From Bdellovibrionota bacterium (GTDB taxonomy: Bacteria; Bdellovibrionota_C; UBA2361; JBIKWN01), in assembly GCA_044356295.1 (NCBI GenBank), contig JBIKWN010000001.1:61434-125433 (forward strand): a stretch of 64,000 bases of DNA, read 5' to 3'. Numbering within the stretch: position 1 is the first letter of the stretch; the number at the start of each line of letters is the position of its first letter. The translations under genes and the position numbers were made by a program. Under the pieces are notes generated by a model, which saw nothing but the letters and a program-made list of their open reading frames with translations, did no database searches and was not told where the DNA came from. This document shows positions 6,769-28,444 of the stretch, one piece after another.

Positions 6769-8172
6769 ATGAACCGTCAATTATTTATAATTCAAAAATC
6801 TCAGAATCTACCTGAAGGGCTGCGTCAGGCTCTGAAAACAAAAGGATTCCCTTCAACAATTATTGAAAGTGTTAGTGAAATAGAGGCAGCAGTTGGAAGT
6901 ATTAATGACTTTATTACGCTCGTCTACTGCGATGAGAACACGGATAAACAAACACTACTCGGTGAACTGGTAGAGCTAAAGCTACTTCATCAAAATCCAA
7001 TCGTTTTAATCGGAAATAATTTAGATTCTTCCGAATCATTCCTCAATAGACATTTTATTTTAGCAACAACTCTTACATCTCCTTGTTCAAACAACGATGT
7101 CGTATCTGCTGTTACGTATGTTATCAAATATGTAGATAGGATTCGAAAGCAGAGAAAGCCATCTGAAGCTACCGAGCAAGAATCATCGCGTGCATTTTAT
7201 AAAGAGTTTAAACTTGTACCCCATGGTATCTTTAAAAAGTTAGATGAACTTGGGCTGTTTGAAAAAATCCTAGGTGGGGCAGAGTATGCCACAACGTTTC
7301 GCCCACAAAACTTAAAAGAAAAATATTTCTATCCACAAGATGAATATCGCCGAGAATGTGTTGAAGAGATAACTGACAGTCTCGACGAATCACAATTAAG
7401 TCGATTTACAAGAATAGCATTACTGAGCCATAAAATTTTAACTGCTGTAGGGCTTTCAGAGAATATCTTTCAAGATGCACTGACTGCCGCAAATCTATAT
7501 TCATACGGATTTTTTCTAAACTCGAAAACTTCGGCAAGTTCTGAATATTTTTCTGAATCTAAAATAGCCATGCGTAAAGAAGTCTGTAGCTTGGTAAAAG
7601 ATGCTCTCATTTCGATACCAGCCCTTAGTCAGTTTGGTGAAACAAAAGAGATTATTAAACGAGTCGGTAAATTTATAGGAGAGGAAGATACCCCTGACGA
7701 AAGTTCTCTTTCTATCGCTGCCTCTGCGATTGCAACTGCTGATGCAGTAGACCGAGTTGTATTTAATAGAAATGTTTTTCAACCAGTAGCTGCTTATTGT
7801 CTTCTTTCTAAGTTCAAAAGAGAGCAGATTCCATTTATGCATCCTCTTGTCCTAGGGATAGTTGTCAAGATTCTTGCCGAAGCTGCAACGTCAAATGCAT
7901 CTGGAATCGCTATTACTAAAAAGATGAAAGATGTTGCTCGTCTTACGCAAGCAGCTTCTCTTATTGAAAACCAAATTATCAAACAAGATGAAGTCGCCAT
8001 TTCAATTAGCCAACTGGCACCTGGTATGAAACTAACTCAGGGTGTCATTACCTATGATGGAAAATCTGTTCTTGATGAACCAGTTATACTCGATCAGGAT
8101 CTGATCTGGAGACTGTGGCAGTTATCTTCAATTCGCCCACTACAAGAAAAAGTAGTGGTAGAAAAAGAGTAG
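6769..8172 (+). CDS. Hypothetical signalling-type protein. It may have an N-terminal receiver-like fold and an HDOD-like segment.
   Basis: 467 aa. The N-terminal roughly 120 aa has an alternating hydrophobic/loop pattern resembling CheY-like receivers. The central region ('LSRFTRIALLSHKILTAVGL...AANLYSYGFFL') resembles the degenerate HD (HDOD) pattern. These domain assignments are speculative. Confidence 0.3.
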   Translation: MNRQLFIIQKSQNLPEGLRQALKTKGFPSTIIESVSEIEAAVGSINDFITLVYCDENTDKQTLLGELVELKLLHQNPIVLIGNNLDSSESFLNRHFILATTLTSPCSNNDVVSAVTYVIKYVDRIRKQRKPSEATEQESSRAFYKEFKLVPHGIFKKLDELGLFEKILGGAEYATTFRPQNLKEKYFYPQDEYRRECVEEITDSLDESQLSRFTRIALLSHKILTAVGLSENIFQDALTAANLYSYGFFLNSKTSASSEYFSESKIAMRKEVCSLVKDALISIPALSQFGETKEIIKRVGKFIGEEDTPDESSLSIAASAIATADAVDRVVFNRNVFQPVAAYCLLSKFKREQIPFMHPLVLGIVVKILAEAATSNASGIAITKKMKDVARLTQAASLIENQIIKQDEVAISISQLAPGMKLTQGVITYDGKSVLDEPVILDQDLIWRLWQLSSIRPLQEKVVVEKE

Positions 8173-8207
8173 GGAGCACAAAGGAGCACTCCCCAAAAAA
8201 GCATACG

Positions 8208-8465
8208 TTAGAATAATTCAACAAATAGCTTTTGAGCTATCTTTTCAGAATCAACCTTATACGTACCTTTTTCATATTGCTCTCGGATACTACTAACTTT
8301 CTCTGAGCTATTAGGTTTATCAACTCCACCAGTATTCGAAGCAAAAGAAACTTTTGCTGCGTCATCTGTTGTTGATAGGGTTTTGCTTCTTTCCGTTTGT
8401 GCTGATGCACGTTCTGGTAAGCGCACGACATTCGATACCGCTGAGTTCAGCGACTTTATTTCCAT
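8208..8465 (-). CDS. flgM: Anti-sigma-28 factor FlgM
   Basis: 85 aa with a Ser/Thr-rich N-terminus. The C-terminus 'IREQYEKGTYKVDSEKIAQKLF' matches the conserved FlgM sigma-28-binding helix region. Confidence 0.5.
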   Translation of the reverse strand: MEIKSLNSAVSNVVRLPERASAQTERSKTLSTTDDAAKVSFASNTGGVDKPNSSEKVSSIREQYEKGTYKVDSEKIAQKLFVELF

Positions 8466-8633
8466 GTTACACCTCGTCCTTGACGAATAGGGCTTCTTTC
8501 TGCAAAAGCACTATCCTCTTAATCCGTTTCAGCCATCCTTAGCCAATGACGAGAATCCTTTCTACAATTAATTATTTCGACTTGTAACAAAATTGTCTTA
8601 AGCTCAATCTTTCAGAAGGGCATACGAAAAATC

Positions 8634-9044
8634 ATGAAATTTAAGATCATCACTGAATCCGTTGTAAAACAGAAATTCGTTCTATCAGGAGAAGAAGAAT
8701 ATAAAATTAGATTACAATCGAGCGCTCCTATTGAAATGAGCGTAGGAGGTATCGAAAAAATACCAGACAGAAGTTTTGTAATCGCTCTTGATGAAAATGG
8801 GAAAGAGCACTCCTCGGAAGATTTTGCCGAGTTCCTCCGTAAAAAAACAGTTTCAGGAACGAGTCATTTTACATTTCTTATAGGTGGGGCTTCGGGACTG
8901 ACCGATGCAATGCGGAAAAGAGCGAACGCAACCATTGCGCTTTCAAAGTTAACCTTTACCTATCAGATGACACGACTTATTCTTGTTGAACAATTGTACC
9001 GCGCGGTCACTATAATTCAGGGCAAGCCCTACCATAAGGAATAA
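8634..9044 (+). CDS. rlmH: 23S rRNA (pseudouridine1915-N3)-methyltransferase
   Basis: SPOUT-family motifs 'FLIGGASGL' and 'LILVEQLYRAVTIIQGKPYH', 136 aa. Confidence 0.85.
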   Translation: MKFKIITESVVKQKFVLSGEEEYKIRLQSSAPIEMSVGGIEKIPDRSFVIALDENGKEHSSEDFAEFLRKKTVSGTSHFTFLIGGASGLTDAMRKRANATIALSKLTFTYQMTRLILVEQLYRAVTIIQGKPYHKE

Positions 9045-9532
9045 TGTATATGGGAAAAATTAAAAAATTTGCAGCACTTAATATTAAAAAAATTGTTGGT
9101 GGACGTGATCCGTTAAGAGTGGTTGAAGAGTTCCTTTTAAAGTTAAATGTCGATCCGGATAAAGTTTTAAAAGATAAATCACTTGATGCTGCTCGGTGGC
9201 TTGTGCCTCTCAACGAAGAAAATGAATTAGAAGTTTTGATTGAGAATGCTCGCTCTGCGCAAGAGACTACTTTTTATCTTGGGGTTAATATTATTACGGT
9301 TCCTCTAAGAGGTTCTGCTGATTTTATAGCAGCTGCACTTGAAATTGCAGATGGACTCGTTGGTATCAAACTAAGCCTTGTTGGATATTATTTAGTACTG
9401 AGCGCGACTCTTGGAGGTGCTGATATAACTGTTGATGATCTTGAGTATCACTACCGGCTTATTACTGCGCAACGACGGTGGTTTCTTGATGCTTTAAGTG
9501 ATGAGCTCTCTCCACTTGAGGAAGGAGAGTAA
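9044..9532 (+). CDS. Hypothetical protein, possibly YbjN-like
   Basis: 162 aa, acidic. Its start overlaps the rlmH stop (TAATG). An alternative start is the ATG at 9050. The family assignment is weak. Confidence 0.35.
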   Translation: MYMGKIKKFAALNIKKIVGGRDPLRVVEEFLLKLNVDPDKVLKDKSLDAARWLVPLNEENELEVLIENARSAQETTFYLGVNIITVPLRGSADFIAAALEIADGLVGIKLSLVGYYLVLSATLGGADITVDDLEYHYRLITAQRRWFLDALSDELSPLEEGE

Positions 9533-9539
9533 TTTCTAA

Positions 9540-10656
9540 TTATACTTTAACCCCATCAACAAGATACGCTTCGATAAACCCATCGATATCACCATCCATA
9601 ACTTTATCAATGGATGATGTTTCAAAATTAGTTCGAAGATCTTTCACCATTTGATACGGCTGAAACACGTAGGATCGAATCTGACTGCCAAAATCAATCT
9701 TCATGCGCGCACCCTTTATTGCGTCCATCTTCTCTGCGTTAATCTGCTGCTCTCTCTCATACAGTTTTGCTTTTAACATCTTCATGGCTCGCTCTTTATT
9801 TTTATGTTGAGAACGATCAATTTGGCATGCGACCACAAGTCCGGTAGGAAGGTGTGTTAATCGAACAGCCGAATCTGTTTTATTCACGTGCTGTCCTCCT
9901 GCACCTGATGAACGATAGGTATCAATTCGAAGGTCTTTCTCATCGATGACTATTTCTACGTCTTCTTCAATTTCAGGAGTAACAGAAACAGATGCAAAAC
10001 TTGTATGCCTTCTTGCATTCGAATCAAATGGAGAAATTCTAACTAAACGGTGTACTCCTTGCTCTGATCGTAGAAGCCCATAGGCAAAATCACCTTGGAT
10101 AGAAATAGTGGCAGACTTAAGTCCTGCAACTTCGCCAGGAAGATAATCAACTATCTCAGTTTTAAATCCTTTTTTCTCTGACCACCTAATGTACATTCGA
10201 AGAAGCATCTCAGCCCAATCCTGCGCTTCGGTGCCACCGGATCCTCCATTTACTTCTAAAAGGACATCGGCACGGTCGTGTTCTCCATTCATTTTTAGGA
10301 GAAATTCTTGTTTTGATAATATAACTTCAAGGGAGTCCATTGAAGCCTTTGCTTCTAATAAAAAATCATCTTCTCCGGCTTCAACTGCAAGCTGCAGAGC
10401 CGTTTCTGCATCTGAGAATTTATCAGTAAGTGTTTTTGAAAGTTGAATTATCTCTTGGCATTGAGATCTCTCTTTTAAGAGATTTTTCGCAACTTCTGCA
10501 TCATTCCAGAAATCTGGTGCTTGGGTTTGAACTTCAAGCTCTCCTAATTTTCTTTCTTTTGTTTCAACGTCAAAGAAACCCCCTAAGAGCTTCAGTGCGC
10601 TCTTTTAACTTTGTAAGGTTTGATTTAATAGTGGTGGCATCAAGGTGCTCTGACAT
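9540..10656 (-). CDS. prfB: Peptide chain release factor 2, with a +1 programmed ribosomal frameshift
   Basis: The downstream frame (266-aa ORF) carries 'SGAGGQHVNKTDSAVRLTHLPTG'. The upstream 28-codon frame 'MSEHLDATTIKSNLTKLKERTEALRGFL' ends at the CUU UGA C motif (plus-strand coordinates 10575-10569), preceded by an internal SD 'AGGGGG'. Joining the frames gives a protein of about 372 aa. Confidence 0.9.
10568..10590 (-). promoter_or_regulatory. prfB: prfB +1 frameshift site: internal Shine-Dalgarno 'AGGGGG', then 'CUU UGA C'
   Basis: Read directly on the minus strand: 'AGGGGGTTTCTTTGAC'. Confidence 0.85.
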
Positions 10657-10717
10657 ATGAAGGGTATCATGCCAAATATCGATAAAGTTTTCTACGAATC
10701 TTACCGATATTCTTACT

Positions 10718-12115
10718 GTGGAGTACCGATTAAACAATTGGCATCATATACCCCTCGATAAGAGGCGATTGAGTCGTGCTGTGGAGCACGTCAATACTTT
10801 CTGGCTTCCTATTGAAACCTCAACTCATTATCAAGTACTTCGATTATTGGATGAACCAGAATCGTCTGAAATCTCTGTTAGAGACGAGGTCAAAAAAGAC
10901 CCCTATCTTTATCTGTATATTTTACGTGAATTATCAGCAAAAAAAATTTGTTTTCATCGAGCTTCTAAAACCCAATTAAACGTAATACTGGAAAAAAATA
11001 TTTCTCAAATTTCTACACATAATGGGGAACGGGGAGCACATTTTCAAATAATTCTAAGAAAACAACTGCAACTTGAACTGGCAACACTAACAACTCTTTC
11101 TGAGGCAGCATTGATTGACTCAAATACTTCTTATGAAGCAGGCGCTCTTAATCAGCTTGGAATAAATTTAATTTGCTGGAACTATCCACAAATGTATCAA
11201 GAAGCAATTTCGGAAGCACGTCCTTCTTTTTCAATCGAAAAAATACTCACAAGAAAATTAGGCTTTTCACCACTCGAGCTGGCAAAGGCAGTTGTAGATG
11301 AATGGGAAATTGGTGATTTTTCTCGAGCGCTTATAAACCCTCATTATCTTCCTCTTAAGATCACTGAAGAATTCGAAGTATTCACTGAAACAGTAAAAAA
11401 TCTTAAAAAGATATGCGACATTAGTACTGCATTTTCAAGGGCGCATCATCCAGAGATGTATGCATCTGCAAAAAGAGATTTTAGAAATTCATACCAAGAA
11501 ATCTATAGATCGCTCGGTTCCGAAGGAATCGACAAAATTCAGAAACAATACTACTCGCTCATTGGTGAAGTTGCGCCAATTCTTAGTAGTGATTCGCTGT
11601 ACAGTCAACATCCACAGATCGCATCTTTTGAACCACCACGGAAGGTCTATCAATTAAATAGAGAGCTTAAGACAAAGTTTTTTGAATTTTACGAAGAGAT
11701 AAATCATGTTTCTGTACATTCATCACTAAAAAAAATTACAAAAGACATTCTTTCATCATCTCAGTTTGACGGATTAGAACTCTTAACGTTTGATCCTGTT
11801 ACTAGAGCTCTTTCTTCTCAATTTTCAACAGGTGAGCTTTTTTATAGAGAACAAGAATTATATGATTCTGAAAACTCCAAACCTCTTCAAGCATTCCTTA
11901 ATCCTGATCAAATAGTTCTTACAGCAGTTACCCCAGAGGAATTTGGACTCATAGAGCGGACTGCATTGTTTACTTGCTTAATAATCAATGACCGAACGAT
12001 AGGCGTTCTTCATGTAGAAGGACCTTTCTTAATTCATGATATTCTCTCTGGTCAGCATAGGGATGAACTCGTCTCTGTAAAATTAGCATTAGAGGATGCT
12101 CTTCACTTAGCCTAA
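10718..12115 (+). CDS. HDOD-domain signalling protein with a possible C-terminal GAF-like domain
   Basis: The N-terminus 'LPIETSTHYQVLRLLDEPESSEISVRDEVKKDPYLYLYILR' fits the HDOD consensus (LP..P..ll..l.d......l...i..DP.L...lL). 465 aa. It lies directly upstream of the RND pump genes with a 63-bp gap. Confidence 0.45.
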   Translation: MEYRLNNWHHIPLDKRRLSRAVEHVNTFWLPIETSTHYQVLRLLDEPESSEISVRDEVKKDPYLYLYILRELSAKKICFHRASKTQLNVILEKNISQISTHNGERGAHFQIILRKQLQLELATLTTLSEAALIDSNTSYEAGALNQLGINLICWNYPQMYQEAISEARPSFSIEKILTRKLGFSPLELAKAVVDEWEIGDFSRALINPHYLPLKITEEFEVFTETVKNLKKICDISTAFSRAHHPEMYASAKRDFRNSYQEIYRSLGSEGIDKIQKQYYSLIGEVAPILSSDSLYSQHPQIASFEPPRKVYQLNRELKTKFFEFYEEINHVSVHSSLKKITKDILSSSQFDGLELLTFDPVTRALSSQFSTGELFYREQELYDSENSKPLQAFLNPDQIVLTAVTPEEFGLIERTALFTCLIINDRTIGVLHVEGPFLIHDILSGQHRDELVSVKLALEDALHLA

Positions 12116-12178
12116 ACTATTGAAATTACTAGGTTTAATTTGAAATTTGTTGGTCTAACAGGCGTTTGATACACTTGT

Positions 12179-13300
12179 TTGATTATGTCAAAAGCTCAGG
12201 TAAAAGTTCTCATCGGTTTTATAGTTATTGTAATTTTATTTGGAGGCATAAAAGGCTGCCAAATATACAAAGCAATGCAAGCTGGCATGTTTACTCCTCC
12301 ACCAGAAGCTGTAACCACTGCAACTGCACAAGATGCAGATTGGAATACGACATTTGAAGCAGTAGGTAATGTGGCTGCGGTAAGTGGAGCAACCCTTAGT
12401 TCTCAACTCGCAGGAACGGTAACTAAAGTAAATTTTGAATCAGGATCAACTGTAGAAGAAGGTGCGACTCTTCTTGAACTTGATAACAGCGTTGAAATTG
12501 CACAATTAAAAGGAGCTCTTGCTCTTCAAGCTCGCATGAAAAAAGGTTTTGACCGTGCAGTATCACTTCGTCAAAAAAATGCTATTTCAATTGATGAATA
12601 TGACAATACATCGGCTCTCTATGATCAAGCTATCAGTGCTGTTGATGCTCTCAAAGCAACTATTGCAAGGAAAAAAATCATTGCTCCTTTTTCAGGCAAA
12701 GCTGGAATTCGCATGGTAAATATCGGTGACTATGTTAAAGAAGGACAAGAGATAGTTCCGCTGTATAACTTATCATCTATACACGTTAACTTCTCTGTTC
12801 CTCAAAACTTTATCTCTAAAGTAACAGCTGGAAGTTTAGTGACTGTCTCAGTTGATGAAAAAGCAACTGCTTCTTTTACCGGAAAAGTCACAGCGGTCAA
12901 TCCAAATGTAATGGAATCAACTCGTAACGTCAGTGTTCAAGCTACTATTGTAAATTCAGCTGATGAACTCCTACGTCCGGGAATGTTTGCACATGTCTCG
13001 CTCTCTTTAAATGAATCAGTAAAAGGTCTAGTGATACCAATTACAAGTATTAACTATGCTCCTTACGGTGATTCTGTCTATGTTACTGAGAAAGGTGAGG
13101 GGGATACTAAAAAAGTAAGGCAACAATTTGTGAAAGTCGGTGCTAAGAAAGGAGATCAAATTCAGATTCTTAGCGGAATTGCTGCAGGCGATGAAATAGT
13201 TACAAGTGGACTTTTTAAGTTGCGCCCTGGTGTTTCTATCTCAATTAATAACAATTTAGCCCCTGCCTCTTCTGATAACCCACAACCAAAAGACACATAA
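12179..13300 (+). CDS. RND efflux periplasmic adaptor (membrane fusion protein, HlyD/AcrA family)
   Basis: N-terminal transmembrane anchor, then beta-barrel/lipoyl motifs typical of MFPs. 373 aa. It immediately precedes the RND permease. Confidence 0.85.
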   Translation: MIMSKAQVKVLIGFIVIVILFGGIKGCQIYKAMQAGMFTPPPEAVTTATAQDADWNTTFEAVGNVAAVSGATLSSQLAGTVTKVNFESGSTVEEGATLLELDNSVEIAQLKGALALQARMKKGFDRAVSLRQKNAISIDEYDNTSALYDQAISAVDALKATIARKKIIAPFSGKAGIRMVNIGDYVKEGQEIVPLYNLSSIHVNFSVPQNFISKVTAGSLVTVSVDEKATASFTGKVTAVNPNVMESTRNVSVQATIVNSADELLRPGMFAHVSLSLNESVKGLVIPITSINYAPYGDSVYVTEKGEGDTKKVRQQFVKVGAKKGDQIQILSGIAAGDEIVTSGLFKLRPGVSISINNNLAPASSDNPQPKDT

Positions 13301-13321
13301 TTATTCTAAAAAATAAAAACC

Positions 13322-16300
13322 ATGAGCAGTTTTACTGATATATTTATTCGACGTCCTGTTCTTGCAACCTGTATTAACTTAATGTTGCTTATTGTTGGGA
13401 TACAAGCATATTACGCACTTAATGTCCGCCAGTATCCAAAAACAGATCTTGCTATCGTAAAAGTTACCACTGCATATATAGGAGCAAATGCAGATCTTGT
13501 ACGAGGCTTTCTAACTACTCCATTAGAGCGTGTTATAGCATCAGCAGATGGCATTGATTACATGGAGTCAGAGAGTAGGCAGGGTGTTAGTACGATAACT
13601 GCACATTTGCGTCTAAACTTTGATACAAATGCAGCTCTAACCCAAATTCAAGCAAAAGTTGCGCAAGTAAGAAACGAACTTCCTCGAGAAGCAGAAGCTC
13701 CTATTATTGATGTTGAAACAAGCGATAATAGATTTGCTTCGATGTATCTTGGTTTTTCATCTCCTGATTTGGCGCAAAATGAAATTACTGACTACTTAAC
13801 CAGAGTTGTGCAACCTCAATTATCTGCAGTTGCAGGAGTTCAAAAAGCAGACATTTTAGGGGCAAGAACTTTTGCAATGCGTATTTGGCTAAAACCAGAA
13901 AAACTTGCCGCTTATAATCTATCACCTTCTGCAGTCCAAGCAGCTCTTGAGAATAATAACTTTCTCTCTGCAATCGGATCTACAAAAGGCAATATGATTA
14001 CAGTAAATCTTGTTGCTAATACTGACCTAAAATCAAAAGAAGAATTTGGAAATCTGGTTGTAAAAGAAAAAAGTTCGACACTTGTTCGGCTTTCAGATAT
14101 TGCAGATATACAATTAGGTGCAGAAAATTACGATGAAGATGTTCGGTTTAGTGGTCAAACTGCCACATTTATGGGCATCTGGGTTCTTCCAAATGCCAAT
14201 AGTTTAGAAGTAATAAAAAGAGTTCGAAAAATTCTTCCTAATATTCAAGAGAAACTGCCATCAGGTATGAAAGTTGGTATTCCTTATGACTCAACGGCAT
14301 ATATTGAAGATGCAATCAGTGAAGTTATTCAAACACTTCTTGAAACTATTGCTATTGTAATTGTTGTTATCTATTTATTTATTGGTTCACTTCGCTCAGT
14401 CATTGTTCCAGTTGTCGCAATTCCACTTTCACTACTTGGAGCATTACCGTTAATGCTGGCACTTGGCTTTACGATTAACCTCTTAACGCTGCTTGCAATT
14501 GTTTTAGCAGTGGGGCTCGTCGTTGATGATGCAATAGTGATGCTTGAAAACGTTGAGCGTCATGTTGAAGATGGGATGACTCCATTTGATGCTTCCATAA
14601 AAGCAGCAAGGGAGCTTGTTGGTCCTATCATCGCTATGACTATTACATTAGCTGCTGTGTATGCACCAATTGGAATTCAGGGTGGTTTAACTGGTACGTT
14701 ATTTAAAGAGTTTGCATTTACATTATCAGGTGCTGTCTTTATCTCTGGATTTGTTGCTTTGACTCTTTCTCCGATGATGTCTTCAAAACTTGTAAAAGCA
14801 AATCAAAATCCAAATGCCTTAAAGAGAAAGCTTGATTCATTTTTTTACTCTCTGAAAACTACATACGAAAACAGCTTGATAAAAAGTCTTCAGTATCGAT
14901 CTTCTGTCGTACTTTTGATTGGACTAATAGTACTGTTGATTGTTCCGTTCTATATGTTTTCAACAAAAGAGCTTGCCCCACGAGAAGATCAAGGAATTGT
15001 ATTTTCTATTATTCAAGCACAACCAAATTCCTCTATTGAGCAAACACTAACGTATACAAAAGAAACTCAGAAAGTTTTTGAGACCTATCCTGAATATTCT
15101 CAAAGTTTTCAACTGATAAGCGCAAATTTTGGATTCTCTGGAATGCTTACTAAGCCGTGGGCACAAAGAAAACGAACTACTCAAAATTTAGAAGAGTTGA
15201 TGTGGGGCCAGATGTCAGTAATTCCAGGCATTAGGGTTATCGTCACTACACCGGCTCCACTTCCTGGTGGATCGGACTTTCCAATTGAAATGGTGATCTC
15301 TTCAACTGATGAGCCAAGAAGAATATTTGAGTATACCCAGCAGATTGTTGGTGCAGCATTTGAATCTGGGCAATATATGTTTGCTGATTCTGATTTAAAG
15401 TTCGATCTTCCTCAAAGTGAAGTTGTTTTTAATCATGATAAAGTGGCAAGTCTTGGAATTAATCTTTCACAGGTCGGAAAAGATTTAGCTGTCTTACTCG
15501 GTGGAAATTATGTTAATCGATTTAATATCCAAGGAAGAAGTTATAAAGTTATTCCTCAAGCAAAAAGAGTTGATAGATTAAATCCTGAGCAATTAAACTC
15601 ATACTATGTCTCTGGTCCGAATGATTCTTTAGTTCCACTGTCTACTTTTGCATCGATCCGAACGACAACCGAGGCTCGTTCTTTAAATCGATTTCAACAG
15701 TTAAACTCAGCTAAAATTCAAGGTGCTATTATTCCAGGTGTTTCGATTGATCAAGGTCTTAAAGTCCTAGAAGACGCTGCAGCTAAAGTGCTTCCATCGA
15801 ATTACATAATTGATTACGCAGGTGAATCAAGACAGCTTCGTAATGAATCGAATGCATTATTAACTACATTAATTTTAGCACTCATATTAATCTTTCTTGT
15901 TCTTGCTGCTCAATTTGAAAGCTTTCGAGACCCTTTTGTTATTCTTGTTGGTTCTGTTCCTTTAGCGCTCTCAGGTGCATTGATGTTTGTATTTTTTGAT
16001 TTTACTTCTTTAAATATCTATTCACAGGTTGGTTTAGTGACGCTTGTAGGATTAATCTCTAAAAACGGTATTTTGATTGTTGAATTCGCAAACGTCCTTC
16101 AGGAAAATGGTAAAAATAAATTTGAAGCTGTTATTGAAGCTGCATCAACACGACTTCGTCCAATCTTGATGACAAGTGTTGCAACGGTAGCAGGGCACTT
16201 TCCACTCATCCTTGCTTCCGGGGCAGGGGCGGGGGCAAGAAACAGTATTGGCTGGGTGCTTGTTACTGGTATGATAATTGGAACATTCTTTACACTCTAT

Positions 16301-16393
16301 ATGGTTCCATCTCTTTATACCTATATTGCGGGGGATCACTCTCGAAGAGAGAATGAAGAAGAGTACAAAGAAAAATTACATCATGCCGCATAA
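13322..16393 (+). CDS. RND family efflux transporter permease (AcrB/MdtB-like)
   Basis: 1023 aa with 12 predicted transmembrane helices and two large periplasmic loops. Typical AcrB-family segments are present ('AIVLAVGLVVDDAIV', 'RLRPILMTS'). Confidence 0.9.
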   Translation: MSSFTDIFIRRPVLATCINLMLLIVGIQAYYALNVRQYPKTDLAIVKVTTAYIGANADLVRGFLTTPLERVIASADGIDYMESESRQGVSTITAHLRLNFDTNAALTQIQAKVAQVRNELPREAEAPIIDVETSDNRFASMYLGFSSPDLAQNEITDYLTRVVQPQLSAVAGVQKADILGARTFAMRIWLKPEKLAAYNLSPSAVQAALENNNFLSAIGSTKGNMITVNLVANTDLKSKEEFGNLVVKEKSSTLVRLSDIADIQLGAENYDEDVRFSGQTATFMGIWVLPNANSLEVIKRVRKILPNIQEKLPSGMKVGIPYDSTAYIEDAISEVIQTLLETIAIVIVVIYLFIGSLRSVIVPVVAIPLSLLGALPLMLALGFTINLLTLLAIVLAVGLVVDDAIVMLENVERHVEDGMTPFDASIKAARELVGPIIAMTITLAAVYAPIGIQGGLTGTLFKEFAFTLSGAVFISGFVALTLSPMMSSKLVKANQNPNALKRKLDSFFYSLKTTYENSLIKSLQYRSSVVLLIGLIVLLIVPFYMFSTKELAPREDQGIVFSIIQAQPNSSIEQTLTYTKETQKVFETYPEYSQSFQLISANFGFSGMLTKPWAQRKRTTQNLEELMWGQMSVIPGIRVIVTTPAPLPGGSDFPIEMVISSTDEPRRIFEYTQQIVGAAFESGQYMFADSDLKFDLPQSEVVFNHDKVASLGINLSQVGKDLAVLLGGNYVNRFNIQGRSYKVIPQAKRVDRLNPEQLNSYYVSGPNDSLVPLSTFASIRTTTEARSLNRFQQLNSAKIQGAIIPGVSIDQGLKVLEDAAAKVLPSNYIIDYAGESRQLRNESNALLTTLILALILIFLVLAAQFESFRDPFVILVGSVPLALSGALMFVFFDFTSLNIYSQVGLVTLVGLISKNGILIVEFANVLQENGKNKFEAVIEAASTRLRPILMTSVATVAGHFPLILASGAGAGARNSIGWVLVTGMIIGTFFTLYMVPSLYTYIAGDHSRRENEEEYKEKLHHAA

Positions 16394-17780
16394 TTTAGTC
16401 TCTGATGAAGAGGCGCTCTTATTAATAAAGGAAGCATCCCAAGGGATTTTTACTGAAGATCTGACATCCCAGTGGTTAAAGATCTTCGCTGCTCGTCCTC
16501 AACTAAAAAACTTTGTTAGGCAAAACGCATCCATGACTCTTGCAGAGTATGGAAAATCGCTCTTTTCTACCGAATCAAAAATTAGCAATACGTTGAAGGA
16601 GATTGTTACAAAAAAAACATCTTCTCTTTTTGGCACAGAGGCATCAGAAAAAGCTTCTAAAAGCTTAGATCTGCTTGGAAATATTGATACTTCTTCACAT
16701 GGAGGAATTTTTTCAGAGGATACTCTTGTACAGAGCCATCTTGTCATAGCCTCTGGAGCTTCAAGTCATCAGTCGTCATCACTTGTGTCACTAGCATGCG
16801 GTGTTGTGCCGATGAATAATGCGACATGGCCTCGAGGTTTTTTTCGTTTAGGTAATCGTGAGTCTCTATTCCCTAAGTCTTTTGACCGTATTGCAGTGCA
16901 TGAATGTAGTACCTTTACTAAGGAACACATTGATAAAAGACTAGATGATGCTTCCATTGACTCATGCACCAAAGAGATTTACGAATCAATAAAAAGTATT
17001 CCTCAAATTTTTGAGCATCGTTATTTTTTTGATCAGATGACAGTTATTAATCACGAGCTTTGGAAAAGGTCTTGTTCAATTTCTGGTGTTTCTCAATTTT
17101 ACCATCTTCTTCTTGAAGATATCACTGCAGAGCTTGTAATAAAGAGCATTGAATCTAAAGACGCACTATCAAAGCTCATATTCTGTGCTGACCAAAGAGC
17201 GCACTTTATGGAACTTTTTTCGAATCTGCCTGGCACATGGAGCCTCGATAAGAAAAAAGGTACTTTCCTTTTCTGGGCATCAACAGGTGATTTTAGAGCA
17301 GCTAGTGTTTGGCCTTCAGAAAATGGCGCATCATTGGTAACCGCACAACGAACAATTCCATTTACTGAAGAAGAAATTAAAATTGCTCTAGAAAAGCGAG
17401 AACTTGTCCCTTCAGTGTTTCTCTCTCTCGTAACATTACTCCTTAATGGAGTTCGACCATCTGGTGGATACCATCAAATTGCTTATCTTCCAGAGTACGC
17501 AAAACGTCTCGAAGCTTTTTCTGCTCACCTCGAAGAGGTTCGGTGTCCTTTATTTCTTGGGCAAATGCAAACTGCAGATCTTTTTCAGCTTGGTTACGGA
17601 TTTACTTTTATCAAAGATGCAGCTTCTTCTACTGGATTTGCAGGCATTGATACTCTTATCTGTAATCCAATTTCAAAAGAAGACTTTACCGCGAAGCTTG
17701 AATCCACTTCAGTGGCAGCTTCATTACTTGGAAACTCTTCAAGACTTTTTTCAGAAATAGTCCCCAAAAATCAGCAGTAA
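16383..17780 (+). CDS. Hypothetical soluble protein, about 465 aa, translationally coupled to the RND permease
   Basis: The ATG at 16383 overlaps the permease stop (ATGCCGCATAA). The ORF is long and uninterrupted, with no transmembrane segment and no recognised motif. The 5' extension given in the ORF track would overlap the pump gene and is rejected. Confidence 0.5.
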   Translation: MPHNLVSDEEALLLIKEASQGIFTEDLTSQWLKIFAARPQLKNFVRQNASMTLAEYGKSLFSTESKISNTLKEIVTKKTSSLFGTEASEKASKSLDLLGNIDTSSHGGIFSEDTLVQSHLVIASGASSHQSSSLVSLACGVVPMNNATWPRGFFRLGNRESLFPKSFDRIAVHECSTFTKEHIDKRLDDASIDSCTKEIYESIKSIPQIFEHRYFFDQMTVINHELWKRSCSISGVSQFYHLLLEDITAELVIKSIESKDALSKLIFCADQRAHFMELFSNLPGTWSLDKKKGTFLFWASTGDFRAASVWPSENGASLVTAQRTIPFTEEEIKIALEKRELVPSVFLSLVTLLLNGVRPSGGYHQIAYLPEYAKRLEAFSAHLEEVRCPLFLGQMQTADLFQLGYGFTFIKDAASSTGFAGIDTLICNPISKEDFTAKLESTSVAASLLGNSSRLFSEIVPKNQQ

Positions 17781-18274
17781 CCTTCTTTTTGTAGGATACG
17801 AAGGATTCTTTTTTCGCTTCTCCTCATCTGTGCTGCTTTTGTTGCTGAAACTTTTTCATGATCAAAACCAAGAAGATGGTGGATTCCGTGAACTATCAGT
17901 CTGGTAAGTTCCTCATTGAATGTGACTTCAAATTCTTTTACTTGTTTTTTTAAAGTATCAACAGAGATAACGAGTTCACCAAGGGCTACCTCCCAGGGCT
18001 GTAAACGTATGCCTTCAATTTGAGAAAATGAGAGCACATCAGTCGGTTTATTTTTCAACCGATATTTTTTATTAAGTGTTTGAATCTCTTTATCATCACA
18101 AAAAAGAATTGAAACTTCACAAATTTGCTTGGGGACAATATTAGATACCGAGTCTTTTAAGATCCTCTGTACTAGTTTTTTTATCTTCAATGGACGGATC
18201 TCGATCCATGTTTTTCTTGTGATGACCGTCACTGTCCAGGTCTTTAACTTTTTCTGCAGGTTCCGCATATGCAA
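17771..18274 (-). CDS. ybeY: rRNA maturation endoribonuclease YbeY
   Basis: Zinc-binding motif 'HGIHHLLGFDH' and 'DKPTDVLSF'. The annotated ATG start would overlap pgpH by about 130 nt. The true start is probably an internal or non-ATG codon near 18150. Confidence 0.75.
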   Translation of the reverse strand: MHMRNLQKKLKTWTVTVITRKTWIEIRPLKIKKLVQRILKDSVSNIVPKQICEVSILFCDDKEIQTLNKKYRLKNKPTDVLSFSQIEGIRLQPWEVALGELVISVDTLKKQVKEFEVTFNEELTRLIVHGIHHLLGFDHEKVSATKAAQMRRSEKRILRILQKEGYC

Positions 18275-23438: not shown

Positions 23439-23488
23439 AAACAGCCCATTATGCCCAGCTATTGTGATAGCTACAATTAAACAGTATA

Positions 23489-23508
23489 ATTCAAACGCCC
23501 GTTTGAAT
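23489..23508. promoter_or_regulatory. 20-bp palindrome 'ATTCAAACGCCCGTTTGAAT', a candidate TetR operator, overlapping a TATAAT -10 element at 23485-23490
   Basis: Read directly. It lies 13 bp upstream of the TetR-family gene start, in the alaS/TetR divergent intergenic region. Confidence 0.4.
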
Positions 23509-23520
23509 CGCTTGTTTAAT

Positions 23521-24153
23521 ATGAATGATGATATAAAAGATACCAGACTAAAGCTTTTAGAGATTGCGGGTGAAGTCTTTGCTGAAGAGGGATTTAGGCT
23601 CGCAACCGTTCGAGAAATCTGTAAACGTGCAAATACTAATATCGCTGCTATCAACTATCACTTCGGGGATAAAGAGAAGCTTTATGAGGAAGTTTTTCGA
23701 TATATTCATGCCTTTGAGTGTAGTTCACCTGAGCCAGAAAAAGAGCTCATCGATATCAATAAAGATCCCAAAGGTGCTCTTAATCAGTTTATAGACGAGA
23801 TGCTTTGTCGAATGCTCAATCCTGGAAAGTTTTCTTGGAAAGGAACACTTATGGCGAGAGAGATGGTTGAGCCGTCCCCAGCGCTAGACGTTATCATTGA
23901 GCTTTGGATTAATCCTTGTTGGAATCGACTAAAAGAAATCACTTCTTCAATTATTAATAAACCAATAACTTCTCATGAAAATCATATCGCTGCATCCTCT
24001 GTCATGGCTCAGTGTTTTTTTCATAAACATGCAACTGCAGTGCTTACAAAAGTAAATTCAGAGTTTGTATACAATCCTGAGCAGATCGATCTGCTTTCAA
24101 AATATCTTTCCGCTTTTGCTTTCGGGGGCCTCGAAGCCGTTAAAAACCTATGA
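23521..24153 (+). CDS. TetR/AcrR-family transcriptional regulator
   Basis: N-terminal HTH 'RLATVREICKRANTNIAAINYHFGDKEKLY'. Start taken at 'MNDDIKD' (23521). 210 aa. It precedes the efflux genes. Confidence 0.8.
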   Translation: MNDDIKDTRLKLLEIAGEVFAEEGFRLATVREICKRANTNIAAINYHFGDKEKLYEEVFRYIHAFECSSPEPEKELIDINKDPKGALNQFIDEMLCRMLNPGKFSWKGTLMAREMVEPSPALDVIIELWINPCWNRLKEITSSIINKPITSHENHIAASSVMAQCFFHKHATAVLTKVNSEFVYNPEQIDLLSKYLSAFAFGGLEAVKNL

Positions 24154-25313
24154 TGCATATTGCAATCAAAATGCTCGTAGGGAACCGAGGAAAGTACTTC
24201 GGCATGGTCTTTGGTGTATTCCTCTCTGCAATGATTATTACCCAGCAATCATCAATCTTCACAGGACTTATGTCTCGAACCTTTGGGTTTTTAGTAGATA
24301 CAAAATATCCAGATATCTGGGTGATGGATCCAATGGCTCAGTATGTAGATGATTTCAAGCCTATGACTGATACAAAACTGCTTCAGGTTCGAGGAATTGA
24401 AGGTGTTGCGTGGGCAGTACCACTCTATAAAGGATTATTAAGAGCAAGACTAGAGGATGGAAGTTTTCAACAAACAAATGTTATTGGTCTCGATGATGCT
24501 TCATTAACAGGAGCACCACCTATCATGCTTCAAGGTAATGTTTCAGATCTTAGAAGATCAGATGGAATCATTATTGATGAAGCAGGTAATCAAAAAAGAT
24601 TTGCAAAAAAAAACCCAATACCAGGTGGCCCTAAAATCCCACTAAAGATTGGCGATACTTTAGAAATCAACGATAAACGTGGAGTCGTTGTTGGTATCAC
24701 AAAAGTCCAAAGGACGTTTCAAACTAATCCTGTCATTTATACTACCTACACGCGTGCTTTGAGCTTTGCTCCGAAAGAAAGAAAGTCATTAACTTATATT
24801 TTGGTTAAGGTAAAAAAAGGACAAGACCTAAACGAAGTAGCAAACAGAATAACAAAACTTACCAAACTTAAAGCTGTTACAAACGACGTATTTGCTGATT
24901 CAACAGTACAATATTTTTTAAAAAATACTGGGATTCCAATTAACTTCGGCATTGCAGTTATTCTTGGGCTTATTATCGGCACTGCAATCTGCGGGCAAAC
25001 ATTTTATAGCTTTACCCTAGATAATGTTCGCTATTTTGGAGCCCTCAAAGCGATGGGTGCTTCGAATTTCGTTTTACTAAAAATGATTTTTCTTCAAGCA
25101 ATCATTGTTGGATGTATTGGATACGGCGCAGGAACAGGAGTTGCATCACTTTTTTATTATCTCTCAAAGAATAGCGAACTTGCATTTAGATTAACCTGGC
25201 AAATACTCGCTATCACTGGATGTGCCGTAACGTTTACCTGTCTTGTTGCAGCTCTTCTTTCGATGCTCAAAGTATTTTTTCTTGAACCGGCTATCGTGTT
25301 TAAGGGGGAATAA
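24150..25313 (+). CDS. ABC transporter permease, DevC/FtsX-like (MacB-type fold)
   Basis: 387 aa with an N-terminal transmembrane helix, a large periplasmic domain and a C-terminal 3-TM FtsX domain. It is followed by a cognate ATPase and a HlyD-family adaptor. Confidence 0.7.
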   Translation: MMHIAIKMLVGNRGKYFGMVFGVFLSAMIITQQSSIFTGLMSRTFGFLVDTKYPDIWVMDPMAQYVDDFKPMTDTKLLQVRGIEGVAWAVPLYKGLLRARLEDGSFQQTNVIGLDDASLTGAPPIMLQGNVSDLRRSDGIIIDEAGNQKRFAKKNPIPGGPKIPLKIGDTLEINDKRGVVVGITKVQRTFQTNPVIYTTYTRALSFAPKERKSLTYILVKVKKGQDLNEVANRITKLTKLKAVTNDVFADSTVQYFLKNTGIPINFGIAVILGLIIGTAICGQTFYSFTLDNVRYFGALKAMGASNFVLLKMIFLQAIIVGCIGYGAGTGVASLFYYLSKNSELAFRLTWQILAITGCAVTFTCLVAALLSMLKVFFLEPAIVFKGE

Positions 25314-25314
25314 C

Positions 25315-26013: not shown

Positions 26014-26022
26014 TAAAAATTT

Positions 26023-26970
26023 ATGAATACTATTCCAATGACAATTATATCGTTCTTAAAAAAAGGGGCTCAACTTCTAGGAACCTACCTCATTCCAGTT
26101 ATTGCTGTGATTGGTTTCCTTACAGCACTTTCAGTAGTTCGTGCAGGAAATCAACCACCTCCAACGTCTGCTCCAGTTATTGAACCTGCAATTGCTCCCT
26201 TTGAATATTACGTTGCCGGTGCAGGGCTTGTTGAATCGAGTGGAGAAAATATTGCAATTTCGGCACAGGTTCCAGGTGTTATAGAAAATATTTTTGTATC
26301 AGTTGGACAAAAAGTAATAAAAGATGAGCCTCTTTTTCAGATCGATACCAAAGCAGCAAAAGCGCTTGTTGAAACACGTTTAGCATCTGTAGAAGTTTCA
26401 AAAGCCCAGAGTACTGACGCGAAGAATCAGCTTGATTTCATCACATCACTTTCCGATAAAAGAGCCGTTAGCGTTGAAGAACTTACAAAAAGAAAAAACG
26501 CTTTTTTCATATCGCAAGCAAAACTTCAGTTAGCAGAAAAAGAGCTCGAAGCTGCAAAGACCGATCTTGAAAGACTAATAGTTCGCGCCCCAAGAGACGG
26601 AACAGCGCTTCGAATCAATACTAGACCGGGTGAATTTGCTGCTGCACAAAATATGGCAGCCCCGTTATTAATATTTGGAAATATCGAACAACTCTGGGTG
26701 CGTGTTGATATCGATGAAAACGATGCATGGCGTGTAAAGGAAAATGCAAAAGCAGTGGGAAGCCTCCGCGGCAATGCTTCCATGAAAACGAATCTTGAGT
26801 TTGTCCGATTTGAACCCTATGTCATTCCCAAAAAATCACTTACCGGTGATAATTCAGAGCGCGTTGATACAAGGGTCCTTCAGGTGATCTATTCTTTTAA
26901 CCCAAAGACATTACCTGTGTTTGTCGGACAACTTATGGATATTTATATTGAAGGTGAAAGAAATGGTTAA
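26023..26970 (+). CDS. HlyD/DevB-family periplasmic adaptor
   Basis: N-terminal transmembrane anchor and a coiled-coil region. 315 aa. It sits between the ABC ATPase and the outer-membrane factor. Confidence 0.7.
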   Translation: MNTIPMTIISFLKKGAQLLGTYLIPVIAVIGFLTALSVVRAGNQPPPTSAPVIEPAIAPFEYYVAGAGLVESSGENIAISAQVPGVIENIFVSVGQKVIKDEPLFQIDTKAAKALVETRLASVEVSKAQSTDAKNQLDFITSLSDKRAVSVEELTKRKNAFFISQAKLQLAEKELEAAKTDLERLIVRAPRDGTALRINTRPGEFAAAQNMAAPLLIFGNIEQLWVRVDIDENDAWRVKENAKAVGSLRGNASMKTNLEFVRFEPYVIPKKSLTGDNSERVDTRVLQVIYSFNPKTLPVFVGQLMDIYIEGERNG

Positions 26971-28444
26971 TTTTCAAAATTCAACAAAAAAACTCTCAAG
27001 CATTGTATTAATCGCAATATTTAGTGGATGTAGTCTTATTCCTTCAGTAGGTCCTGACTATGAGCGTCCAGCTGATCCAACAGTTGCAGGCTGGATTCTA
27101 GATGAAAATGGTCAGAAGCTTTTTTCCACAAGCATGGACAGCAGAGCAGCGTGGTGGAAAAAATTTAACGATCCTGTACTTGATGACATTGTTAAAAAAG
27201 CAATTGATAAAAATCTTAATTTACAAATTGCTCAATCAAGACTTCAGCAAGCGCGTGCTGGCGAGTACGGTGCTCTGTCAGCTTTTCTTCCGACAGTTGA
27301 TGGAATATACGGTATGAATCGCCAGATTCAATCTCAAAGAACCCCCTTTGGACAGTTTATTCCTAATATTATTAACCAATATCAATTAGGTGGAGACGCT
27401 GCATGGGAGATCGATATATTTGGTGGAAACCGCAGAGGTCTTGAAGCAGCAGAAAGCATTACTGAAGCTGCCGAAGCAGGTCTTGACGATACTGGTGTCA
27501 CCATTGCATCAGAAGTTGCAAAAAACTATTTAGAGTACCGCGCATTTTCAAGAAGAGTCTTGATTGCCGAGAGCAATAAAAGAACACAGCTTAGCTCGTT
27601 AGATCTTGTTCAAGCTAAATTTGATGCAGGAGTTGTCAGTGAGCTAGACCTTCAACAACAAAAATCACAGCTTGAAACTACGTCATCATTTATTCCTGCT
27701 CTTGTCGCCGCTCGTGAACAACGTCTGTATAGAGTCGCTGTTTTGCTAGGAGAAATTCCTCAAAGTTTCTCTATCACTGATGATGCCAAAAAGAATGATC
27801 CATTTACTTTTAGAGATGTTGTATCAGTATCTCTTCCAGCTGAGTACCTTCGGGTACGCCCTGATGTTCGAGTTGCTGAACGTCAACTTGCAGCTCAAAC
27901 AGCAGAAATTGGTGTTGCGATTGCCGACATATTTCCTAAGGTAAATATTCTAGCAGGGATAGGTGTACAATCTATCGATTCAAGTAAACTAACAGAAAGA
28001 GCAAGTAAGTATTGGTCGTTTAATCCAAGCGTTTCTATTCCAATTTTTCAACCAGGAAGAATCTTTGGTGCTATTAAAAATGCCAGAGCTAAAGCTGAAG
28101 AAGCATTAAAGAATTACGAAGTAACTGTATTAACTGCACTTGAAGACGGTCAAAACTCACTCAACGGTTATAAATATGGACTTGATAGAATTAGTAATCT
28201 TGAAGGTGCATACAATGCTAGTAAACGAGCCCTAGAAATTTCGCAAGATTTGTATGCTCAGGGGCTTATTGATTTTCAACGAATTCTCGAATCACAAAGA
28301 CAGGTATTTAGTGCAGAAGATAGCCTACTTCAAGGGCAGCTCGACACCTATCTTTCGGCAATTGCTGTTTACAAAGCTTTTGCAGGCGGACTTCCAAATG
28401 AAGAAGCAGTAGATTCTGAAAAAAAACCTAACGAAAGTGTTTAA
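26963..28444 (+). CDS. Outer-membrane efflux lipoprotein (TolC/NodT family outer-membrane factor)
   Basis: Start at 'MVNFQN...IFSGCS' (lipobox). It contains the duplicated TolC-type repeat pattern. 493 aa. Confidence 0.8.
   Translation: MVNFQNSTKKLSSIVLIAIFSGCSLIPSVGPDYERPADPTVAGWILDENGQKLFSTSMDSRAAWWKKFNDPVLDDIVKKAIDKNLNLQIAQSRLQQARAGEYGALSAFLPTVDGIYGMNRQIQSQRTPFGQFIPNIINQYQLGGDAAWEIDIFGGNRRGLEAAESITEAAEAGLDDTGVTIASEVAKNYLEYRAFSRRVLIAESNKRTQLSSLDLVQAKFDAGVVSELDLQQQKSQLETTSSFIPALVAAREQRLYRVAVLLGEIPQSFSITDDAKKNDPFTFRDVVSVSLPAEYLRVRPDVRVAERQLAAQTAEIGVAIADIFPKVNILAGIGVQSIDSSKLTERASKYWSFNPSVSIPIFQPGRIFGAIKNARAKAEEALKNYEVTVLTALEDGQNSLNGYKYGLDRISNLEGAYNASKRALEISQDLYAQGLIDFQRILESQRQVFSAEDSLLQGQLDTYLSAIAVYKAFAGGLPNEEAVDSEKKPNESV

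Follow-up and report, generated by a model that had tools for sequence, protein, structure and literature searches.

Why the gene of a soluble protein should begin inside the permease gene of an efflux pump, and what that protein does, are the questions raised by the operon at positions 10718-17780 of the 64-kb stretch of DNA from an uncultured Bdellovibrionota analysed here (64,000 nucleotides, hereafter the window). Four + strand open reading frames encode, in order, an HDOD and GAF domain protein, an RND adaptor, an HAE1-like RND permease and the soluble protein, here called X (Table 1). An earlier note on this DNA had proposed this gene order, and all four reading frames were confirmed. 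The interest of the locus is the last gene, X, and not the pump, which is an ordinary proton-driven one.

Table 1. Features of the pump operon and its surroundings, in window coordinates
Feature	Positions	Strand	Basis or remark
prfB (release factor 2)	9540..10656	-	TIGR00020, 443 bits; left boundary of the slot, conserved
Divergent intergenic region, 61 bp	10657..10717	.	Separates the prfB start (10656, minus strand) from the HDOD-GAF start
Soluble signalling protein with HDOD and GAF domains, 465 aa, GTG start	10718..12115	+	HDOD Pfam score and fold search
RND periplasmic adaptor (MFP)	12179..13300	+	TIGR01730 RND_mfp, 228.9 bits (cut-off 94.9); HlyD_D23, 86 bits
HAE1-like RND permease, 1023 aa, full length	13322..16393	+	ACR_tran (PF00873), 836 bits, model positions 2-1020 of 1021
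11-nt overlap ATGCCGCATAA	16383..16393	+	Contains the X ATG start and the permease TAA stop
Protein X, 465 aa, soluble	16383..17780	+	Predicted BshC / class I aminoacyl-tRNA-synthetase-like Rossmann fold
T103-S-S-H106-G-G codons (X family T-x-x-H-x-G signature)	16689..16706	+	Lies after the first predicted strand of the Rossmann fold and before its first helix
ybeY	17771..18274	-	YbeY Pfam, 117.5 bits; convergent with X; right boundary of the slot, conserved
TolC-like outer-membrane factor	26921..28444	+	Pfam OEP, 135.5 bits; in a separate TetR-MacB-ABC-MFP-OEP operon

The adaptor, whose true start is probably the ATG at 12185 (the public gene call is 371 aa), has an N-terminal membrane anchor (Kyte-Doolittle maximum 2.41 at residue 6), and 21 nt separate its gene from the start of the permease gene. 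The permease reached 1090 bits against NF033617, under the cut-off of 1250 for that subfamily. Its translation contains the proton-relay motifs VVDDAIV, ISKNGIL and RLRPILMTS, which we take, by motif and without a structural alignment, to be the equivalents of AcrB D407/D408/K940/R971 in TM4, TM10 and TM11. In its adaptor, 12-TM permease, full-length ACR_tran match and proton-relay motifs, the pump resembles those of the AcrAB/MexAB type. The operon itself has no gene for an outer-membrane factor, one of the partners that the earlier note had named as normal for RND pumps. The absence is ordinary, the factor presumably being encoded elsewhere as with acrAB and tolC in E. coli, and the OEP of the MacB-type operon is a candidate channel shared with the RND pump. 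Unlike AcrAB/MexAB-type systems, where a TetR/MarR-type regulator is usual, the locus encodes an HDOD-GAF protein devoid of a DNA-binding domain, and its permease gene is overlapped by the gene of a soluble, enzyme-like protein.

The product of the first gene scored 22.8 bits against a gathering cut-off of 22.9 for HDOD, a cut-off that two of its homologs passed. The fold search returned HDOD plus GAF, with the GAF fold in the C-terminal ~150 residues, so that the HDOD(-GAF) assignment guessed earlier, with a Pfam scan proposed as the check, holds. The protein has neither a DNA-binding nor an enzymatic output domain. It would most likely bind a small ligand and provide regulatory input through protein contacts. 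Its distant homologs are solitary. Both this protein and X are 465 aa long; a comparison showed that they are not paralogs. Nor is the ~400-aa N-domain of certain MFS fusion proteins homologous to the HDOD-GAF protein, and the window holds no second copy of it or of X.

The overlap between the start of X and the permease stop was found as claimed before and measures 11 nt. An 11-nt overlap is also present in relatives L004 (ATGCCGGCTGA) and L007 (ATGCCGCTTAG), and in L002 the two genes abut (TAA/ATG, gap 0 nt), so this junction is conserved and not a chance feature of one genome. No Shine-Dalgarno-like purine run was found in the 20 nt before the X start. This geometry suggests translational coupling of X to the permease, and X may be made in step with the permease through termination-reinitiation at the overlap.

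The operon occupies a conserved chromosomal slot. On its left, prfB carries a programmed +1 frameshift (AGGGGGTTTCTTTGAC was read in the sequence) and adjoins the slot likewise in L002, L004 and L010. On its right, the 3′ end of ybeY overlaps that of X by 10 nt, and the order ybeY - 7TM-HD - phoH - alaS is kept in relatives. The divergent intergenic region is, from its position, the presumed operon promoter region; a consensus scan of the region for promoters and terminators gave matches no commoner than expected from shuffling. No Rfam family was found in the window and no repeats flank the pump genes, and the GC content is flat across the region, without a compositional break.

An RND permease gene lies directly upstream of X in four Bdellovibrionota genomes, with the 11-nt overlap or the 0-nt gap, and this arrangement is confined to closer relatives, in which X identity is at least 51%. 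One of them, L007, has MFP-RND-X without the HDOD-GAF gene. The pump-less relatives L005 and L010 are outgroups, with X identities of 39-40%. Within the same prfB...ybeY slot, L005 has the HDOD-GAF gene followed directly by X after a gap of 49 nt, and L010 has X alone. The answer to whether X homologs always sit 3′ of RND permeases, a check proposed earlier, is thus no. The presence of X in this slot in genomes lacking the pump indicates that X is older than the pump link and so cannot be an obligate pump subunit.

X was described earlier as soluble, and this was upheld: the maximum Kyte-Doolittle 19-residue mean is 1.5, with no segment of transmembrane grade. X is also no known RND component. 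Neither Pfam nor NCBIfam gave a match for X or for 40 plus 3 other members of its family, searches of PDB sequences with X alone and with the family profile gave nothing meaningful, and the cluster look-up for X returned "hypothetical protein" only. A word-indexed homolog search with the broad family alignment added no further named proteins. The predicted model of X is confident (pLDDT 82, pTM 0.87), and the fold matches rest on it. It has a Rossmann core with connective peptides, as in BshC (PDB 4wbd), to which the predicted core of X is closest; in structure, full-size BshC and LysRS matched it best. A Foldseek search of X against the PDB gave no match with an E value below 3.6. Homology of X to BshC or to any aminoacyl-tRNA synthetase (aaRS) was undetectable in profile searches, and aligning the family profile with a verified BshC sequence in hhalign gave nothing significant, either locally (probability 0.6%) or globally.

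The earlier view that the last protein lacks any motif has to be revised, since the X family combines this predicted fold with near-invariant, enzyme-like residues. Among 162 family representatives (160-162 counted, depending on the position), H106 is present in 160/160, T103 in 154/160 and G108 in 134/160. The other near-invariant residues are Q218 (161/161), Q365 (160/162), E245 (154/161), N146 (153/160) and R151 (147/160), and a conserved loop, GGY(H)QxxYLP, follows the last predicted strand. The T-x-x-H-x-G signature may be equivalent to the HIGH / (T/H)xxH nucleotide-binding motif; it sits where that motif is expected in the predicted fold and is not a canonical HIGH. Compared with MshC and the class I synthetases (LysRS-I, CysRS, GluRS), X is without HIGH proper, KMSKS, an anticodon-binding domain and a Pfam tRNA-synt_1 match. 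No KMSKS-like motif or conserved K/R-rich loop was found in it, and Pfam and NCBIfam gave no tRNA-synthetase match of any kind.

The X family comprises at least 943 clusters at 50% identity, from Bdellovibrionota, Patescibacteria, Thermodesulfobacteriota, Actinomycetota and Alphaproteobacteria, and includes DVU_RS16645 on pDV1 of Desulfovibrio vulgaris Hildenborough as well as proteins of Streptomyces sp. NBC strains and Agrobacterium tumefaciens. It is undescribed, having no Pfam or NCBIfam model and no name, and we found nothing on it in the literature on BshC-like proteins, on clusters of aaRS paralogs, racemases and MFS proteins, or on the pDV1 genes of D. vulgaris. In 15 metagenome loci, an MFS gene lies upstream of X on the same strand, mostly at gaps of -8 to +25 nt; the sixteenth locus, L032, encodes the two MFS halves in separate genes, the second and the third downstream of X. 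The gene order on pDV1 is SBP-MFS-X, and in Streptomyces sp. NBC_01423 the end of the MFS gene and the start of X share 16 nt. The idea that X is the partner of an exporter fared unevenly: the RND-X linkage is not general, but MFS genes recur just 5′ of X in other phyla, which revives a functional link to exporters in a broader form. That two unrelated exporter superfamilies, RND and MFS, occupy the same position points to function rather than accident.

The family is also linked to amino-acid chemistry. P0078, P0154 and P0159 are fusions of X with a cyanophycin-synthetase-like ATP-grasp domain, and P0039 is a fusion with a CntK/DapF-like racemase. In L032 and L034 the start of X is overlapped by a bona fide alr gene, and DapF is present in six X-family loci. 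The co-directional cluster of NBC_01423 encodes a cupin hydroxylase, a methyltransferase, a PLP decarboxylase, an SDR, an amidinotransferase and a Zn dehydrogenase, together with an L-amino-acid ligase, an MFS_3 exporter, X and a FemAB-like protein. In the known operons for bacilysin (bacABCDE, with an L-amino-acid ligase and an MFS exporter) and staphylopine (cntKLM plus cntE, with the racemase CntK), a ligase or racemase gene is likewise co-transcribed with a dedicated exporter; X-family loci hold an L-amino-acid ligase, CntK-like, DapF and Alr racemases, MFS exporters and a solute-binding protein. Those systems differ in that they are not known to contain an X-type protein, and here the exporter is an RND pump and the operon has no other biosynthetic gene.

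We favor, with confidence a little short of an even chance, a reading in which X is a biosynthetic enzyme that ligates amino acids and the exporter linked to it carries its product out. X would activate an amino acid with ATP (or possibly as aminoacyl-tRNA) and ligate it to an acceptor to give an amino-acid-derived small molecule or amphiphile, its T-x-x-H motif presumably lying where enzymes of such a fold bind ATP. In the pump-bearing clade, the product would be handed to the RND pump and exported via an outer-membrane channel encoded elsewhere, the pump link being a lineage-specific acquisition onto an older HDOD-GAF/X locus. Against this, HAE1 RND pumps take up their substrates chiefly from the periplasm or the outer leaflet, so a product made by X in the cytoplasm would need to partition into the membrane or to take another inner-membrane route. 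Some observations also run against this ligase-export reading, namely that L005 and L010 keep X in the slot without any pump, that the 64-kb window has no gene for a racemase or an ATP-grasp protein close to X, and that X has neither KMSKS nor detectable sequence homology to BshC or aaRS proteins.

The main rival, which we think possible but rather doubtful, is a neutral insertion: one Bdellovibrionota subclade would have gained an MFP-RND cassette between HDOD-GAF and X, or the others would have lost it, X belonging to an unrelated cytoplasmic pathway and the overlap reflecting compaction of a common transcript. The HDOD-GAF-X pair of L005 and the lone X of L010, both in the prfB...7TM-HD-phoH-alaS slot, speak for it, as do the split between closer, pump-carrying relatives and pump-less outgroups, the solitary distant HDOD-GAF homologs, and the GT4, subtilase, TrpRS and DHFR genes that are the non-transporter neighbors of some other family members. 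A neutral origin fits less well with an RND-to-X junction kept tight in four genomes, down to 51% X identity, or with an MFS exporter-to-X adjacency that arose independently in at least two or three other lineages, and the lack of flanking repeats and of a compositional break argues against a recent insertion. Position speaks for X as a non-enzymatic cytoplasmic accessory or regulator docking on the transporter: it comes right after transporters of two superfamilies, with stop and start codons overlapping, which suggests stoichiometric co-production. This role is nonetheless very unlikely: X persists without a transporter neighbor, RND and MFS transporters share, to our knowledge, no common cytoplasmic surface, and the predicted model groups the invariant polar residues (H, Q, N, R, E) on a nucleotide-binding fold, which would indicate catalysis.

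If X is an enzyme, its chemistry could differ from ATP-dependent ligation. Like cyclodipeptide synthases, it might use aminoacyl-tRNA and not ATP, passing the amino acid to a small molecule, lipid or cell-wall precursor. This is improbable given the near-invariant T-x-x-H, typical of ATP-binding members of the superfamily, and given that X is best matched in structure by full-size BshC and LysRS and not by the compact cyclodipeptide synthases. The predicted fold puts the X family next to BshC, which adds cysteine in the synthesis of bacillithiol, and MshC, both of them amino-acid-adding enzymes of low-molecular-weight thiol synthesis. Another rival takes X for a true orthologue of BshC that makes bacillithiol or some related thiol based on glucosamine. 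We regard orthology as extremely unlikely. Neither the Pfam nor the NCBIfam BshC model (PF10079, TIGR03998) matches X or three distant family members; TIGR03998 gave a BshC control 671.9 bits and gave X, P0018, P0029 and P0097 nothing. BshC has GGQQAG where X has T-x-x-H-x-G, and X is shorter (465 versus 539 aa), lacking the C-terminal coiled-coil dimerisation domain: its predicted helices after residue 380 span 5-10 residues, and none in the model exceeds ~16. The contexts differ too, with bshA, bshB and panE around BshC and exporters, racemases and ATP-grasp ligases around X. No bshA/bshB-type gene lies next to X within the 64-kb window, and the GT4 protein beside P0018 in L011 does not match the BshA model.

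Returning to X as an amino-acid ligase linked to an exporter, the contexts of the family (racemases, ATP-grasp ligases, exporters and the Streptomyces cluster) point to an unexplored small-molecule biosynthesis. A bolder proposal, which as a whole we consider unlikely, is that the family forms a new class of adenylate-forming amino-acid ligases that work with exporters to make a secreted D-amino-acid-containing or other amino-acid-derived metabolite, for example a metallophore, a signal or an aminoacylated amphiphile. Keeping the gene directly 3′ of the exporter gene would serve joint production, perhaps in a synthesis-export complex, and the RND pump and HDOD-GAF sensor would have been recruited in Bdellovibrionota. 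The reaction of BshC itself has never been reconstituted (PMC5790435), and the structural analogue is therefore little chemical guide for X. Conversely, X keeps a T-x-x-H that is missing from BshC and may help to explain why BshC chemistry has resisted reconstitution. As members of the family occur in tractable organisms, their function is directly testable.

Translation and ORF listing of the window bore out the four-gene order, all in one direction, that the earlier note had described: an HDOD-GAF protein, an RND periplasmic adaptor (MFP), an HAE1-like RND permease and a soluble 465-aa protein, here called X (table below). The reported overlap of the X start with the permease stop was likewise found. 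This 11-nt overlap occurs in the window and in the related loci L004 and L007, with exact abutment of the two genes in L002; the permease-X junction is conserved. No Shine-Dalgarno-like sequence was seen before the X ATG when this junction was checked.

Coordinates of features in the window
Feature	Position	Strand	Remarks
ORF	6769-8172		467 aa, upstream of prfB, without Pfam match
ORF	9044-9532		162 aa, upstream of prfB, without Pfam match
prfB	9540-10656	-	left flank, housekeeping, programmed +1 frameshift
prfB frameshift site	10569-10584	-	Shine-Dalgarno-like AGGGGG, then CTT TGA C; classical +1 type
HDOD-GAF gene	10718-12115	+	465 aa, GTG start
Adaptor (MFP) gene	12179-13300	+	ATG at 12185 fits public gene call, 371 aa
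RND permease gene	13322-16393	+	1023 aa
Permease/X overlap	16383-16393		ATGCCGCATAA, holding the permease stop and the X start
X gene	16383-17780	+	465 aa
ybeY ORF	17771-18274	-	167 aa from first start codon; public annotation only 88 aa
ybeY, 7TM-HD, phoH, alaS	right flank	-	housekeeping genes
Efflux system 1	23389-28444		TetR/CecR regulator, MacB-type permease, ABC ATPase, MFP, TolC-like OEP
Outer-membrane factor (OEP)	26921-28444		only one seen near the RND pump
Efflux system 2	28462-31339		MFP, ABC ATPase, MacB-type permease; back to back with system 1

In profile scans, the adaptor matched TIGR01730 (229 bits) and the permease matched ACR_tran over the whole model (836 bits); both identities are unambiguous. 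The adaptor has an N-terminal membrane anchor by hydrophobicity, and the permease translation contains VVDDAIV, ISKNGIL and RLRPILMTS, the proton-relay motifs of the AcrB type. As a pump of the HAE1 type it is ordinary.

The guess that the first gene encodes an HDOD protein, perhaps with a GAF domain, was upheld. In a Pfam scan the HDOD match was borderline (22.8 bits; cut-off 22.9), and the cut-off was passed by homologs at 50% and 23% identity. In the AlphaFold model (seven sequences, pLDDT 80.5), the N-terminal half is all-alpha and the C-terminal domain alpha/beta. The protein has neither a DNA-binding or catalytic output domain nor a hydrophobic segment of transmembrane grade, and its distant homologs have neither pump nor X nearby. 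It is a new combination of known domains.

X is indeed soluble, with no transmembrane-grade hydrophobic segment, and had no sequence match in Pfam, NCBIfam or the PDB. A word-indexed search found only 14 close relatives (40-100% identity), none of them named. A profile built from 13 of these and scored against 1.84 billion cluster representatives matched 943 proteins at E <1e-3 (704 at <1e-10), and 40 diverse members shared no consistent Pfam match. The family is large and simply undescribed: no paper or Pfam/NCBIfam model describing it was found. A member from Patescibacteria is annotated as "hypothetical protein"; the 90% identity cluster of the Patescibacteria protein P0029 (518 aa) also includes 34-49 aa E. 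coli fragments labeled "recombinase family protein, partial", which looks like a database clustering artefact rather than biology.

Conservation, counted over 162 representatives, was strongest at H106 (160/160), Q218 (161/161), Q365 (160/162), G361 and G362 (159/162 each) and F297 (159/162), followed by W298 (156/162), T103 (154/160), E245 (154/161), N146 (153/160) and R151 (147/160). The predicted structure is very probably built on a Rossmann core of the class I aaRS type, nearest to that of BshC, the cysteine-adding enzyme of bacillithiol synthesis. In it, T103-x-x-H106 follows the first strand and precedes the first helix. HIGH or (T/H)xxH occupies this place in class I synthetases and in nucleotidyltransferases related to them, and we infer that the motifs are equivalent. 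Neither a KMSKS-like motif nor an anticodon-binding domain is present in X.

The idea that X homologs always lie 3' of an RND permease did not hold. The source is a relative of the Bdellovibrionota; a MAG of that name, to which L006 and L007 belong, has a permease 85% identical to that of the window. The complete operon is found in the window (L001), L002 and L004; in L007, adaptor, permease and X come after genes for an FGE-sulfatase and GT2. In L005 (X 39% identical) the HDOD-GAF gene is followed by X after 49 nt with no pump, and in L010 (40%) X stands alone beside prfB. All lie in the same prfB...ybeY/7TM-HD/phoH/alaS neighborhood. Genomes with the pump are more closely related to the window (X identity at least 51%), and gain of the pump within an older locus is the simplest history.

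A metagenome scan gave 39 distant X loci (21-28% identity), none with an RND gene. Neighbor clustering placed a large protein whose C-terminal domain is MFS_1 near X in 16 loci, upstream on the same strand in 15 of them (gaps mostly -8 to +25 nt), a PF04392 solute-binding protein on the other side of X in 15, and a DapF gene nearby in six. The start of X shares 14 nt with a bona fide alanine racemase gene (TIGR00492, 292 bits) in L032 and L034. X is also fused to a cyanophycin-synthetase-like ATP-grasp in P0078, P0154 and P0159 (845-860 aa; TIGR02068, 157-178 bits, model positions 211-468) and to a CntK/DapF-like racemase domain in P0039 (846 aa; NF033599, 87 bits). Annotated plasmids of cultured D. 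vulgaris, Streptomyces and Agrobacterium carry homologs (family-profile E 4e-63, 5e-63 and 3e-24). On pDV1 of the model sulfate reducer D. vulgaris Hildenborough an operon has the order solute-binding protein, 1012-aa MFS protein, X (DVU_RS16635, 16640, 16645; L055, record 192334-198416) and adjoins type III secretion genes; literature mentioning the neighboring DVUA014x genes gave no functional information. Near the end of the Streptomyces sp. NBC_01423 linear plasmid (L056 66-11765), a co-directional biosynthetic cluster encodes a cupin/JmjC hydroxylase, methyltransferase, PLP decarboxylase, SDR, amidinotransferase, Zn dehydrogenase, L-amino-acid ligase, MFS_3 exporter, X and a FemAB-like protein; the start of X and the end of the MFS gene have 16 nt in common. 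Six Streptomyces NBC plasmids share this apparently uncharacterised cluster. Agrobacterium pAt has AHL synthase, methyltransferase, X and GNAT genes. In these metagenome, fusion and plasmid contexts, the X family thus accompanies exporters, racemases of amino acids and ligases that form peptide bonds. X genes tend to come directly after the gene for an exporter, a pattern seen with two exporter superfamilies and in no fewer than three lineages.

Distant X loci also conserve an uncharacterised module (L016 3002-8185; L017 4961-12661; L020, L026, L031, L037, L041, L044): a DapF-like epimerase, an MFS transporter fused to an unknown N-domain of ~400 aa (which at times includes a zinc ribbon), in some loci an unknown 250-300 aa protein, then X, and the PF04392 protein, encoded on the other strand. 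Close to the module are a sigma-54 response regulator and a dCache histidine kinase. In L032, separate genes encode the N-domain and the MFS part; they are the second and third genes downstream of X.

We rate the locus as a proposed biosynthesis-plus-export operon around an undescribed enzyme family. X is probably an enzyme; that it is a non-catalytic accessory, with the near-invariant residues listed, is very improbable. It has about an even chance of being an amino-acid ligase of the BshC/MshC/class I aaRS fold class, most plausibly working as MshC or BshC does, and given the T-x-x-H motif it would probably be adenylate-forming; aminoacyl-tRNA-dependent transfer is improbable. Judged by their sequence models, motifs or accessory domains, X belongs to neither the BshC nor the aaRS family. 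With TIGR03998, B. subtilis BshC as a control (one mismatch to 4wbd_A) scored 671.9 bits and X-family members gave no score; hhalign of the family profile with BshC was not significant, its sole local alignment setting VSTADHHG of the family on VVGGQQAG of BshC. A true BshC orthologue is the least probable identity for X.

The product of X would be a secreted amino-acid-derived metabolite or amphiphile, exported in the pump-bearing clade by the RND pump via an outer-membrane factor encoded elsewhere (candidate, the OEP of the table), with HDOD-GAF giving ligand-dependent control. This whole reading falls a little short of an even chance, and a functional link of X to the pump, taken by itself, is somewhat more doubtful. 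Against ligation and export stand the pump-less relatives L005 and L010, the lack of companion biosynthetic genes in the operon, and the substrate side, as HAE1 pumps usually take substrates from the periplasm or outer leaflet. The chemistry of BshC itself, not yet worked out (PMC5790435), also counts against it. Neutral insertion of the pump into the older locus is the main rival, less probable than this reading. The interest of the ligase-export operon is moderate and comes mainly from the X family: it is widespread and has no name, model organisms allow it to be tested, and by structure it is a neighbor of BshC, whose reaction is unsolved.

At the flanks, the zero-frame product of prfB ends after 28 residues. 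The 5' end of the ybeY ORF shares 134 nt with the 7TM-HD gene, and its 3' end shares 10 nt with X; its YbeY Pfam match covers residues 29-159, against the 88-aa public call, which leaves the real start uncertain. L002 and L004 lack a counterpart of the 467-aa ORF and have in its place an unrelated 344-aa ORF or a gene for an aminotransferase. Between ybeY and 7TM-HD, L010 encodes a 618-aa flagellin (7513-9369) with FG-GAP repeats between Flagellin_N and Flagellin_C.
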